A stretch of 63,643 nucleotides of DNA, filler included, from Licmophora abbreviata (lineage: Eukaryota): assembly GCA_900291995.1 (NCBI GenBank). It is 12 parts of 12 records of this genome, joined end to end, with 100 filler letters (N's around TTAATTAATTAA, not from the genome) between each part and the next. Parts side by side here need not be neighbours in the genome. Positions count along the whole stretch, not along the records: positions 51,581 to 54,004 come from OLMU01004956.1; 11 more parts are not named here. One strand, 5' to 3'. The notes beneath the pieces were generated by a model. The model did no database searches. It worked only from the letters and a program-made list of their open reading frames with translations, and was not told where the DNA came from. Position 1 is the first letter of the stretch. Every line of letters begins with the position of its first letter. Below, in pieces: positions 48,924 through 54,747 of the stretch. Made by a program: the position numbers and the translations under genes.

Positions 48924-50508
48924 ATGGAACGCAAGCCATCAAGAAACGTGCTGGACTGGATGGGCATCAGCGATGCGCCGGACTGGTCGGTCGCCCGTCC
49001 CTTGGGTGCGCTGGTGTCCTTGCTGCTGGTGTTGCTGTTCGCGGGCGCGCTGGTTGCGGCCTTCGTGCTGATCGGCCGCACGATCCTTGGCGACGGCGGC
49101 GCGGGCAGCACTCTTGGCACCGGCGCGCTGATCGTGGCACTGCTGGGTGCGCCCTTCCTGATCTGGTCCACGGTCCTGAAGCACGAGACGGTCCGCTATC
49201 AGAAAGAGGGCCATATCACCGNNNNNNNNNNNNNNNNNNNNNNNNNNNNNNNNNNNNNNNNNNNNTTAATTAATTAANNNNNNNNNNNNNNNNNNNNNNN
49301 NNNNNNNNNNNNNNNNNNNNNTCCCCAATATCGAGGTGCGCATCGGCGCGATCCTGTCGCTGGAGCGCATCGCGCAGGACAGCACCCGTTACGACAAGGG
49401 CCGCGATCATGTGCGGGTGATGGAGATTCTCTGTGCCTATATCCGCGAAAACTCCAAAGCCAGACCGCCTGTGGATTTCCCTGAGCCGGAGTGGGAGCCG
49501 TTGAAGGACGATGCGGCCGAGGAAGAGCGGGCATCGCATCTGGAAAAGCGGCGGGAGAGGTTTGGCGTTAATTTTACCGAATCCAAAGCATATCAGTGGG
49601 GGCAATCCCTTCGCGAACCGCGCGCCGATATCGCGCAAGCCTTGCTGGTGCTGGGTCGTCGCACGGCGGATCAGAGAAAGGTCGAAGCCGCCTGGCCCGA
49701 TCCGCCCGACAAAGACACGAAATGGGTTTTCGACATCCCTTGCCCCGAATTGCCCGACATCGAGGACGGCGAGACGCGGGATCCGGCCCAGATCAAAGCG
49801 TTGAAGGAAAAATTGGCCGAGTGGAAACGAACCCTGCGCGCGTATTCAGGCTATCGTCTTGACCTGCGCGGCGCCAACCTACAACGCGCGGATTTGTCCG
49901 CCAAACGCCCGGACCGATCCGATGCGGTCTTTGCGGGGACCGATCTGCGCGATGCAAGGCTGGAAGGGTCAGCCTTCAGAAACGCGCGATTGGAGGGAGC
50001 AAACCTCAGCAGTGCGCGGATGGAGGGGGCAACCCTCAACAGCACGCAGATGGAAGGGGCAACCCTATGGAATGTCCGCATGGAAGGGGCAGAGATATTT
50101 GCAGCGCGAATGATCGGAGCAGAGATTTTGGAAGCAGGAATTGAAGGGGCAGACACTAGAAACGCACGAATGGAGGGGGCATACCTTTTGGACGTTAGGA
50201 TGGAGGGGGCGCATCTTTGTGCTGCGCGGATGGAGGGGGCGGTTATCAGCGGCTTCCGAATGGACAAGAGAACCGACTTTACCGCAGCAGTGTTCTGCGG
50301 CGCTGCTACCAAGTTGGTTGATTTTCGTGCCAACCCCATTCCAGCCGACCAAATCAATACAGCCTTCGGCGATGGCTCGACCAAACTGCCAGACGCTATC
50401 CCTCGTCCCGCCCATTGGCCCAAGGCGAAACTCCTTTGGCGCGACTTCGAAACCCAATACCAAAAATGGCTCACCAATCCCGATACCTACACCCCGCCCG
50501 ATCCCTGA
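48924..50508 (+). CDS. Membrane-anchored pentapeptide-repeat protein, spanning the sixth spacer
   Basis: Two N-terminal TM helices, EGHIT before the gap, then [20 protein letters not shown]...[24 protein letters not shown] and about 11 decamer repeats of ARMEGA type. Confidence 0.85.
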
Positions 50509-51580: not shown

Positions 51581-52709
51581 CGCGATCCGTCAGAAGGACA
51601 TGTTGCTGCATCACCCCTACGAGACCTTCGACATGGTGGTGCGCTTTCTGCATCAGGCCGCGCGCGACCCCGATGTGGTGGCGATCAAGCAGACGCTTTA
51701 CCGCACCTCGAAGGACAGCCCCATCGTCAGTGCCCTGTGCGAGGCCGCCGAAGACGGGAAATCCGTGACCGCACTTGTGGAATTGAAGGCGCGGTTCGAC
51801 GAGGCGGCGAATATCCGGCAATCCCGGCGGCTGGAGCGGGCGGGCGCGCATGTGGTCTATGGGTTTCTCGACCTCAAGACCCATGCCAAGATCTCGACCG
51901 TGGTGCGCCGCGAGGGCGACAGCCTTGTGACCTACACCCATTACGGGACCGGCAATTACCACCCGATCACCGCCAAGATCTATACCGACCTGAGTTTCTT
52001 CACCTGCGATCCGTCGCTCGGGCGGGACGCGACCAAGGTGTTCAACTACCTGTCGGGCTATGCGCAGCCCGAGAAGCTGGAAAACCTTGCCATTTCGCCC
52101 ATTTCGCTCAAGCCGCGCCTGCTCGAGATGATCGCCCGCGAGGCCGAGAACGTGCGCAACGGCAAGCCGGGGACGATCTGGGCCAAGATGAACGCGCTGA
52201 TCGAACCCGATGTGATCGACGCGCTGTACGAGGCCAGTCAGGCAGGCGTGCGCATCGATCTCGTGGTGCGCGGCATCTGCGGGCTGCGTCCCGGCATCAA
52301 GGGACTGTCCGAGAATATCCGTGTCAAATCGATCATCGGCCGGTTTCTCGAACATTCCCGGATCGTGTGCTTCGGCAACGGGACCGATCTTCCGTCGAAA
52401 AAGGCCCGGGTCTTCATCAGTTCGGCGGACTGGATGGGCCGCAATCTCAACCGGCGCGTCGAAACGCTGGTCGAGATCGAGAATCCCACCGTCAAGGCGC
52501 AGATCGTCGGTCAGATCATGGCCGCCAACATGGCCGATGTGGCGCAAAGCTGGATCATGGCCCCTGACGGCAGTTTCACCCGCGCCGAAACGGTCGAGGG
52601 CGAGTTTGCCTTCAACTGCCACCGCTTCTTCATGGAAAACCCGTCATTGTCGGGCCGAGGATCGGCGGGTGCTGCGGATGTGCCGAAACTGACCCATACC
52701 GAGGATTGA
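51581..52709 (+). CDS. ppk: Polyphosphate kinase 1, C-terminal half (5' end lost in the spacer)
   Basis: [71 protein letters not shown] and [15 protein letters not shown]. Confidence 0.96.
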
Positions 52710-52802
52710 TCCCGGCAAGGTTTTGCCGACACGCCACCCTGCCCCCTGACAGCATCTCCTTTCCTTCCTACCTAACCAGGAACCGACGAAAGAAGGTTGC
52801 AC

Positions 52803-53090
52803 ATGCTTGGATGGGCACTCACATTTCTTGTCATCGCGCTGATTGCCGGTGCGTTCGGCTTTGGCGGGATAAAGCGTTTCGCGAAAAACTTGTACCACAG
52901 ATTTTCGCGAAATGCGGTGCTCGGTTCAATCGTTGCACGCGTTCCGCCTGTCGCTGATACCTCAGGTTAAAGGCGGAACGCTTTAGCCACCACCTCGGCG
53001 GGGATCGCGCAAATTCTGTTCGTCATATTCCTTGCCCTCTTCGTGATCGCGATGTTCCTGCGCGTCCTCAAGGGGCGCCCACCGATGTGA
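52803..53090 (+). pseudogene. DUF1328 (YtjA/UPF0391) small membrane protein interrupted by a miniature inverted-repeat element
   Basis: Removing 114 nt restores MLGWALTFLVIALIAGAFGFGGI|ATTSAGIAQILFVIFLALFVIAMFLRVLKGRPPM* (57 aa). RBS-like AGAAGG lies upstream. The insert carries an in-frame TAA at 52968-52970. Confidence 0.9.
52870..52985. mobile_element. MITE-like palindromic element: 112 bp plus duplicated TA, with terminal inverted repeats and two internal hairpins
   Basis: TA at 52870-52871 and 52984-52985. TIR TAAAGCGTT/AACGCTTTA. Hairpin 1 pairs 52874-52887 with 52902-52915; hairpin 2 pairs GCGTTCCGCCT (52939-52949) with AGGCGGAACGC (52971-52981). Confidence 0.88.
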
Positions 53091-53187
53091 CCGGGTGACG
53101 GCGCGTCAGGCGCAGATCGGCGCATTCCCGCGATTGACCCATGGGGCGCTGTGGCGCATACAGGGCGTGGAAAGACCCGAGAGGCAC

Positions 53188-54747
53188 ATGGACGGCAACA
53201 GCACTCCGGCGCAGGAAGATAGCGGGCCCTTTGGGCGCCCGCTGTTCGACAAGCCTTCGGCCCGCGCACTCAGTCGCGTGGGCGTGGTGGATGTCGGCTC
53301 GAACTCGGTCCACCTGGTCGTGTTCGACGGCGCCGCCCGAAGCCCCGCCTATTTCTTCAACGAAAAGATCATGTGCGGGCTTGGCGCCGGCATGTCCGAG
53401 ACCGGGCGGCTCAACCCCGAGGGACGTGTGCGCGCCCTCAATGCGCTCAAGCGGTTCAAGCTTCTGGGCGACGGGATGGGCACCGGCCCGCTGACCGCCG
53501 TGGCCACCGCCGCGGTGCGCGACGCCGAAGACGGTGCCGAGTTCCGCGCCGAGGTCGAACGCGAGACGGGCATCCGCCTTTGGGTGATCGACGGGCGCGA
53601 AGAGGCGCGGCTCTCGGCACAGGGCGTGCTTCTGGGATGGCCCGGCTCTTACGGGCTGGTCTGCGATATCGGCGGCTCGTCCATGGAATTGGCCGAGATA
53701 AATGGTGGTACCGTGGGCAAGCGGATGTCCTGCTCGCTTGGCCCGCTCAAGCTGCGCGACATGAAAGGCGGCCGCAAGGCGCGCAAGGCGCTCATTGCCG
53801 ATACGGTAGCGCGTCTTCGCAGGGAACTGGGCGAACAGAAAAACCGCCTGTTTCTGGTGGGCGGCTCGTGGCGGGCCATCGCGCGGATCGACATGGAGCG
53901 GCGCGGCTATCCGCTGCAGGTGCTGCATGAATACCGCATGACGCCCAAGGCCGTGCGCGCCACCGCCAAGTATATCGCCGCCAACGATCTCGAAGAGCTG
54001 CGCANNNNNNNNNNNNNNNNNNNNNNNNNNNNNNNNNNNNNNNNNNNNTTAATTAATTAANNNNNNNNNNNNNNNNNNNNNNNNNNNNNNNNNNNNNNNN
54101 NNNNCGATATCGCCGTCTCGAGCTATGGTATCCGCGAGGGGCTGCTTTATGAGCAGATGCCCCAGCAGTTGCGCGACCGCGACCCACTGATCGAAGCCTG
54201 CCGCTTTGCCGAATCCAAGGATGCCCGGCTGCCCGGCTTTGGCCGTGTGGTCTATGAATTCATCGAACCGCTGTTCAAATCCGCCAAGCCCGACCGGCGC
54301 CGCATCATCAAGGCCGCCTGTCTTCTGCATGACGTATCGTGGCGCTCGCATCCCGATTACCGGGCCGAGGATTGTTTCGACAACGCCACCCGCGCCAATC
54401 TGGGCGGCTTGAAACATGCCGAGCGGATCTATCTGGGGCTCGCGCTCTTGCATCGCTATTCGAACAAACGCGAGGGATCGCGCTTCGAAGATCTCTATGA
54501 GCTGATCGACGAACAGGACGCCAAAGAGGCCGAGGTTCTGGGCAAGGCGATGCGCTTTGCCGCCATGCTCTGGCTGCGCTCGGACGCGAAACTTGGCCAG
54601 CTGCGCTGGTATCCCAAGAAGCGCAAGTTGGAACTCTATCTGTCGCCCGAGGCCGCGGCGCTTTTCGGCGAAGTCGCCGAGGCGCGATTCATGTCGCTGG
54701 TCGAGGCACTCGGGGCCGAGCCGGTGATCCGCACCGCCAAGACGTGA
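53188..54747 (+). CDS. ppx: Ppx/GppA exopolyphosphatase, spanning the eighth spacer
   Basis: VVDVGSNSVHLVVF, VATAAVRDAEDG, IDGREEA, DIGGSSMEL, VGGSWRA; after the gap SSYGIREGLLY and AACLLHDVSWR.HPDYR. RBS GAGAGG before ATG 53188. Confidence 0.93.

Follow-up and report, generated by a model that had tools for sequence, protein, structure and literature searches.

A double-hairpin miniature element, probably descended from a Roseovarius-lineage insertion sequence of the IS630 family, interrupts a DUF1328 gene

Small bacterial repeats of several described kinds resemble the subject of this report, a 112-bp miniature inverted-repeat transposable element (MITE) that splits a small gene of the DUF1328 family in a 63,643-nucleotide stretch of DNA (the window) taken from the Licmophora abbreviata assembly GCA_900291995.1. 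For these repeats we draw on the part available to us of the Delihas review (PMC2229807). It describes the RUP elements of Streptococcus pneumoniae as 107 bp long and present in about 108 copies, with TA as their target and termini; their terminal repeats are like those of IS630-Spn1, and they are mostly intergenic but often land in the transposase genes of insertion sequences (ISs). The CcrM-associated intergenic repeats of Caulobacter and Brucella (CIR1-4) are ~110 bp long and consist of two arms and a linker, with TA termini and a conserved GANTC site, recognized by CcrM, at a terminal loop. In that same part of the review the CIRs are listed without terminal inverted repeats, with a question mark for target duplication, as never intragenic, and with a mobility mechanism that had not been ascertained in 2008. 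The Correia or NEMIS elements of Neisseria are described there as small and TA-flanked, with terminal repeats, a target duplication and stem-loop transcripts, and the Rickettsia palindromic elements (RPEs) as small palindromic repeats that may sit inside genes.

The element in the window, at positions 52872..52983 on the + strand, is very probably a MITE derived from an IS630-family IS of the Roseovarius lineage and moved in trans by transposases of that IS lineage. Its ends are homologous to those of an IS630-family IS and it carries a relic of the transposase stop codon, which identifies it as an IS630-derived MITE. What the locus brings to light is a MITE family of the Roseovarius lineage that is apparently undescribed, along with its likely IS630-family parent. 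The original prediction, made from the sequence of the window alone, had called the family possibly undescribed, and we found no description of it in literature searches on MITEs in Roseovarius, Roseobacter and Rhodobacteraceae and on alphaproteobacterial IS630 elements, with ISfinder, Repbase and Dfam outside the scope of these searches.

The interrupted gene begins with an ATG at 52803. Its codons 1-23 (MLGWALTFLVIALIAGAFGFGGI; 52803..52871, + strand) align with an intact orthologue in Roseovarius litoreus and match positions 1-23 of the Pfam DUF1328 profile. The last of these codons (ATA, 52869-52871) contains the left copy of the duplicated TA target (52870..52871), at a place where relatives have two nucleotides, TC. 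The body of the element follows, running from an IS-left-like end at 52872 to an IS-right-like end at 52983 in an alignment with 86 other copies, and after it the right copy of the TA can be read directly from the sequence at 52984..52985. The gene resumes with GCC at 52986, so that codons 24-57 and the stop codon (52986..53090, + strand; TGA at 53088-53090) are severed from their start. The 114 nt added by the insertion preserve the reading frame and carry a TAA at 52968-70, because of which a truncated fusion open reading frame (ORF) remains (52803..52970, + strand) whose product is 55 aa long when counted from the ATG (57 aa if counted from an upstream TTG), with 23 native and 32 element-encoded residues. 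This fusion is the only ORF through the 112-bp body, which is otherwise non-coding, and it covers only positions 1-23 of the 39 in the DUF1328 profile. Uninterrupted, the gene is 57 codons long, and its intact R. litoreus orthologue scores 58.6 bits with Pfam PF07043 DUF1328 (cut-off 27) and 83.5 bits with NCBIfam NF010228 (cut-off 71), which is a DUF1328 / UPF0391 small membrane protein. The insertion is a knock-out of the DUF1328 gene, and the second half of the protein is lost. Counted on the alignment with R. litoreus, 10 of the 174 positions in the gene halves differ, and because neither half contains a frameshift or a stop we regard both as undecayed. Reading of the sequence and alignment with the orthologue thus bear out the original description of a gene split after codon 23 by 112 bp plus a duplicated TA, with an in-frame addition of 114 nt that includes a TAA, and with both halves undecayed.

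Uninterrupted orthologues were found in R. litoreus and in two metagenome contigs. At the same locus in R. litoreus DSM 28249 (genome G001) the sequence is 94% identical to the window upstream of the element and 97% identical downstream, and the match leaves out the insert and nothing else. R. litoreus has the gene as an intact ORF of 57 codons (...GGC GGG ATC GCC AGT GCC...), and the site reads GGGA-TC-GCC. The two metagenome contigs, which share the left flank, also have an uninterrupted gene with A-TC-G at the site, and in sequencing run X8 one contig skips the insert and represents the allele of a ~91%-identical relative. Since relatives have two nucleotides where the window has TA[112 bp]TA, the reading frame requires a 2-bp duplication, and from the frame and from the flanks of the family we infer that the allele before insertion read ATA, a synonymous Ile codon. 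The expectation of a readable empty site therefore holds in that the relatives are uninterrupted, but their sites read A-TC-G, and the predicted A-TA-G string was seen nowhere. The precise empty-site junction would be ...GGCGGGATA joined directly to GCCACC... In runs X1, X2 and X7, contigs with no differences from the window span both junctions in the filled form; X2 may be the sample from which the window derives. The empty site is absent from the contigs of these three runs, but assembled contigs lose rare variants, so this result says nothing on switching. In the same runs the depth inside the element is 30-60 times the flank depth and many loose ends begin at 52870 and at 52985-6, which suggests that many copies are present in the same samples, although summed contig depth is not a copy number.

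Searches of species-representative genomes with the exact 18-mer from the left end of the element gave at least 126 matches, most of them in Roseovarius records. We classified all 126 matches listed. Full copies make up 87 of them, and 82 of these are 111-112 bp long; the counts over 87 copies given below all refer to this set. Five of the 126 are short forms, four of them ~48-bp single-hairpin elements with TA flanks, and the remaining 34 are chance matches in unrelated phyla, truncated copies, or sub-families with a different second hairpin. Of the 87 listed copies, 82 have a TA on the left and 76 have one on the right. CTAG is the preferred target: of the 71 listed copies with TA on both sides, 40 have CTAG, 10 TTAG, 8 CTAA, 7 TTAA and 4 ATAG, the tetranucleotide at the window's site. 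When up to three mismatches are allowed, the 18-mer has 65, 145, 135 and 140 matches in four Roseovarius genomes (the reversed control has 6, 11, 5 and 7). These numbers of matches, with the TA flanks, agree with the predicted multi-copy, TA-duplicating MITE. Within the genus the element occurs in 49 of 121 sampled genomes. Outside the genus almost no genome was found to carry it: a family-level scan gave 2 of 301 genomes, namely R. litoreus G001 itself and one partial match, and is a weak negative because only two candidates per genome were scored. BLAST searches of plasmids found two records, both from Roseovarius, one with a full-length copy of 76% identity and the other with a partial one. 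The most uniform copies in the genomes examined are those of the Roseovarius genome G002, where 11 copies have a mean pairwise identity of 94.2% (range 87.5-99.1%). The copies closest to the one in the window are in R. litoreus and are 93% identical to it, so the idea that the insertion was recent is not established.

The copies look mostly intergenic. In a test for a stop-free frame with high GC content at third codon positions in the 120-nt flanks, 51 of the 87 listed copies have no coding-like flank, 30 have one, and 3 have two that share no common frame; 2 others, once the element is excised, leave a frame across the site that is borderline open, and the flank of 1 is too short. This is a rough guide, because the test failed its positive control, the DUF1328 gene, which is too short; it is valid for longer genes only.

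In the window's copy the terminal repeats TAAAGCGTT/AACGCTTTA are perfect over 9 bp including the TA, and extend to 13 bp with one mismatch. The terminal inverted repeats AAGCGTTTCGC / GCGGAACGCTT (11 bp, one mismatch) are nearly invariant in the 87 listed copies, the invariance of the left arm being fixed by how the copies were selected. All parts of the fold lie on the + strand. Hairpin A (52874..52915) has a 14-bp outer stem formed by the terminal repeat and its own inverted copy further inside the element. A linker containing a small central stem (52917..52938) follows, identified by folding, with its outer helix paired in 82.8% of cells. In hairpin B (52939..52981) the 11-bp outer stem joins the right terminal repeat to an inverted copy located internally. 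The terminal match and the folding agree with the 9-bp repeats and the stems of 14 and 11 bp that had been read from the sequence.

We noticed several other forms related to the element. The ~48-bp single-hairpin forms are TA-flanked and consist of the left end, a loop and an inverted end; shorter derivatives occur in loci L031, L042, L080 and L126. Forms of ~84 bp, for example G001:C1:426515-426598, are without most of hairpin A and match query positions 604-687. Sub-families at L016, L040, L077, L078, L081, L124, L013 and L090 share the left 18-mer and have a different linker and second hairpin.

Pfam DDE_3 matches in four Roseovarius genomes were the starting point for identifying a partner IS. 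Locus L146, in genome G004, is a 779-bp contig whose first base coincides with an IS terminus; in reverse complement, this terminus is similar to the right end of the element. It is 86% identical over 646 bp to L148 in R. litoreus, where the IS is ~1055 bp long and ends in ...GGATATGTCTCAGGTTAAAAGCCGGATGCTT-TA. Copies of this IS, with termini read from the individual loci, are 1055-1058 bp long and TA-flanked. In L155 and L157 an orfA of 139 aa and an orfB of 204 aa overlap at an A-run, in a layout that looks intact. orfB scores 133 bits with the NCBIfam model 'IS630 family transposase' (cut-off 100) and 108 bits with Pfam DDE_3; orfA scores 45 bits with the NCBIfam model, which is below the cut-off, and jointly the two span profile positions 2-297 of 299.

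The ends of this IS lineage correspond to those of the element on both sides. The left end of the L155 IS, TA-AAGCGTTCCGCC..., equals the element's right terminal repeat over 12 nt. The right ends of the IS copies, ...ATATGTC(G/T)CAGGTTAAAGGCGGGACGCTT-TA, align with the element's ...GATGTCTCAGGTTAAAGGCGGAACGCTT-TA, and AAAACCTGAATC(G)C is common to the IS left ends and to the element's left end and hairpin A loop. From the IS the element retains ~28 bp at the left and ~35 bp at the right, and within the latter the final transposase codons (V-S-G) and their stop are preserved. By alignment with the IS right ends, the loop of hairpin B derives from the 3' end of the transposase gene. The TAA that ends the fusion ORF (52968..52970, + strand), compared with IS right ends ...TATGTCTCAGGTTAA..., is the relic stop of the parental transposase (...V-S-G-stop). 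A variant of hairpin B, ...AATCTCGAAACGC..., found in L013 and L090, matches the right ends of other sub-lineages of the IS (L162-L164), and the hairpin B variants suggest repeated, independent births of MITEs from one IS lineage. An IS630-like partner with matching ends had been proposed as something to look for, and an IS lineage with homologous ends exists, though its ends are not identical to the element's on both sides.

Element copies also lie inside the transposase gene of the putative parent itself, at L146:647-758 (G004) and L149:1620-1731 (G002). The transposase in L149 also lacks its middle part. The copy in L146 is flanked by TC on both sides, which is a non-TA target, and with L148 it forms a second filled/empty pair (...AAAC-TC-[element]-TC-GGC... 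versus ...AAGC-TC-GGA...), again with a 2-bp duplication.

Several observations weigh against this explanation. We found no IS copy with both ends identical to those of the element, and the closest IS left ends have 2-3 mismatches to its left terminal 12 nt. The IS copy in R. litoreus is decayed, with its transposase broken into three frames, and G002, despite its uniform element copies, has only a transposase remnant. At the DUF1328 site the relatives have TC, not TA, so that a TA target there is a deduction. In addition, the transposase lineage, searched for with the C-terminal 144 residues as query, is present in 41 of the 121 sampled Roseovarius genomes, and it overlaps with the element in 17 of them, where 16.6 are expected by chance; there is thus no association between the element and the transposase lineage. 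This picture would be expected if MITEs outlive their parents, and the mobilization in trans is our inference.

This lack of association across 121 genomes, the non-identity of the terminal repeats of element and IS, and the presence of several unrelated IS630-type ISs in the same genomes (L150 and L151) would also fit movement by some other transposase, belonging either to another IS630 lineage or to a TA-duplicating IS of the IS5/IS427 type, with the similarity of the ends reflecting shared ancestry only. We think it very unlikely that this is the explanation: the homology reaches into sub-terminal sequence on both sides, including the last transposase codons and the stop, the unrelated IS630 copies have quite different ends (CCAACGGCC...), and different sub-families of the element track different sub-lineages of the same IS.

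Two individual candidates were rejected. L151 might have been a master copy, but this IS630-type IS is unrelated, has ends of its own (CCAACGGCC...) and sits in the hairpin A loop of an element. This IS (L151:842-2117, genome G003) is ~1.16 kb long, with ends CCAACGGCC...GGCCGTTGG, an orfA/orfB split at an A-run, and flanking bases without a plain TA duplication. L150, considered as a partner, is an unrelated IS630 member. Ten left ends of the element run into foreign sequence; inspection of stop-to-stop frames, by eye only, showed no transposase ORF beside them, and they are truncated element copies beside ordinary genes.

A hairpin-rich, mostly intergenic family of about 110 bp could alternatively be of the REPIN-like palindromic kind, spread by a REP-associated tyrosine (Y1/HUH) transposase rather than as a DDE-type MITE. 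We give this almost no credence. A Pfam Y1_Tnp match is present in only one of four element-bearing genomes (on a 558-bp contig of G004), with none in the other three, where the 18-mer has 65-145 matches; REPINs are not known to have terminal inverted repeats or a 2-bp target duplication, both of which the element shows; and its ends match those of an IS630-family IS.

The fold of the element is far more stable than expected by chance. As DNA its folding energy is -34.6 kcal/mol (z -6.8) and as RNA -54.7 kcal/mol (z -6.5), and in either form none of 200 shuffled sequences folded as well, which supports the hairpins originally proposed. Over the 87 listed copies, 87.6% of stem cells hold standard pairs, and in hairpin B 96.2% of cells are paired. 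Two-sided changes occur–for example, pair 77-110 is C-G in 44 listed copies and U-A in 37, and in the central stem pair 50-70 is U-A in 43, U-G in 10 and C-G in 9–with smaller pair switches also in the inner helix of hairpin B. The covariation score was reached by none of 500 shuffles. Because the copies were picked by the 5' arm of hairpin A, that arm had no room to vary, and the large switch at 77-110 is one split between two sub-families, so that its counts are of sequences and not of events. Rfam covariance models gave no matches at E-values up to 1 in the region 52600-53300.

The original prediction had speculated that the element is a functional module, acting either as a reversible switch of the DUF1328 gene through precise excision or as an RNA structure that tunes the transcript of the genes on either side, ppk (polyphosphate kinase) and ppx (exopolyphosphatase). 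The maintenance of the stems and their paired changes, the stability of the fold, and the position of the insert within a co-directional cluster in which the DUF1328 gene sits between ppk and ppx are what such a module might show. The rest of the evidence makes this reading highly improbable. Most of the covariation is the single split between two sub-families. In the IS630-family element ISY100 the cuts fall precisely on the 3' ends but 2 nt within the element at the 5' ends, and after excision the rejoined donor keeps a footprint and not the original TA, according to the part available to us of the paper that describes it (PMC2170065); judging from that account, excision by an IS630-family transposase would not restore the DUF1328 frame, which argues against a reversible switch. 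By tblastn there is no transposase in the 63.6-kb window, as originally noted, although this search covers very little nearby DNA because the element's own contig is only 2.4 kb long, and the IS in the nearest relative is decayed. A simple scan of 52500-53400 found no promoter-like or terminator-like site, so the proposed tuning of the ppk-ppx transcript gains no support there. Finally, ppk adjoins ppx without a DUF1328 gene in three other Roseovarius genomes (L137, L138 and L139, in G003, G002 and G004 respectively), so the gene is dispensable at this locus.

We therefore return to derivation from the IS630-family IS, for which we propose the following course of events. A MITE would have arisen when nothing but ~28 bp at the start and ~35 bp at the end of a ~1056-bp IS was retained, each retained end pairing with an internal inverted copy of the terminal repeat to give two hairpins. 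Transposase of the IS lineage, acting in trans, would recognize these ends, excise the element, and then insert it at a TA, preferably within CTAG, with duplication of the TA. One such event would have struck codon 23 of the DUF1328 gene in the lineage of the window, and the truncated DUF1328 protein would since then end on the element's relic transposase stop. If so, the locus represents a plain gene knock-out by selfish DNA, with no regulatory device. For annotation, such repeats matter in that they break assemblies and create false small ORFs (KRFAKNL... frames), and their insertion polymorphisms might be used for strain typing.

The window consists of 12 contigs, whose 11 joints are marked by 22 N-runs of 44 bases arranged in pairs, each linker being 44 N + 12 nt + 44 N. 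The element's contig (51581-54004, 2.4 kb) holds the 3' part of ppk, the small gene and the 5' part of ppx. The ppk part (51600..52709, + strand; from the ORF list) is cut by the contig start at 51581, and matches Pfam PP_kinase_C_1 with 233 bits and PP_kinase_C with 201 bits. The ppx part (53095..54004, + strand) is cut by the contig end and matches Ppx-GppA with 113.8 bits; a Ppx_C match of 64.7 bits is located on the next contig, at 54157-54747. We also observed that a small gene at this place between ppk and ppx is specific to the R. litoreus lineage. The 63.6-kb window contains no second copy of the element. A search of R. litoreus gave no match for its largest contig (6666-24185) at a threshold of E <= 1e-30, despite the 94-97% identity of the element's contig, and the comparison yielded no further filled/empty pairs; the window may therefore combine contigs of more than one organism, or this contig may be an island. 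On a separate contig, a 390-aa ORF at 49336-50508 (+ strand) has a C-terminal half made up of a run of pentapeptide-like repeats.

A GAATC sequence, which is a GANTC site, occurs in the hairpin A loop (alignment position 23) in 55 of the 87 listed copies and is absent from the window's copy. It is also present in all nine of the IS left ends listed, at the place matching the hairpin A loop. The only sigma-70-like site in the L155 IS (one found, 0.4 expected) is TTGAAT-N18-TATGAT, a short distance upstream of orfA (L155:230-259), and its first hexamer shares bases with the GAATC. From its position in the sequence, GAATC may place transposase expression under methylation control. A parallel exists in IS10, whose transposition is tied to the cell cycle by Dam sites. 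We raise one further idea, which we ourselves consider doubtful: that the CIR repeats are IS630-derived MITEs too, whose GANTC was inherited from a CcrM site in the -35-like hexamer (TTGAATC) of a transposase promoter. If this were true, a CcrM site could tie transposition to the cell cycle, and the Roseovarius family would be the case in which both the parent and its offspring remain readable for comparison.

Compared with the known systems, as portrayed in the available part of the Delihas review (PMC2229807), the window's copy shares with the RPEs that it is a small palindromic repeat inside a gene. The two differ in outcome: an RPE is read through in the protein, whereas the Roseovarius insert is in frame with a stop and truncates the gene. 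Like the Correia/NEMIS elements, the Roseovarius element is small and TA-flanked, with terminal repeats and a target duplication. The Neisseria elements, however, have terminal repeats of 24 bp, and some have an IHF site, with no IS parent named in that part of the review (PMC2229807); their host and sequence are unrelated to those of the Roseovarius element. The likeness to the CIRs, judged from their description, consists of a length of ~110 bp and two arms with a linker; a GAATC lies in the hairpin A loop of 55 of the 87 listed copies, and the copy in the window is without a GANTC. The Roseovarius family departs from the CIRs as presented there in having terminal repeats, a 2-bp duplication and a likely IS630 parent, and at least one of its copies is intragenic. 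Through this resemblance, the mobility of CIR-type elements and the reason for their CcrM site become open to test. With RUP, again judged from its description, the correspondence extends to size (112 bp), number (65-145 matches per genome), TA flanks and IS630-like ends, and to the landing of copies inside the transposase gene of the element's own IS (L146 and L149). The host phyla differ (Firmicutes versus Alphaproteobacteria), and the Roseovarius element folds as two arms and a linker rather than end-to-end and retains the parental stop. On this analogy, and as far as the available account goes, we regard RUP as the closest known kind to the Roseovarius family.

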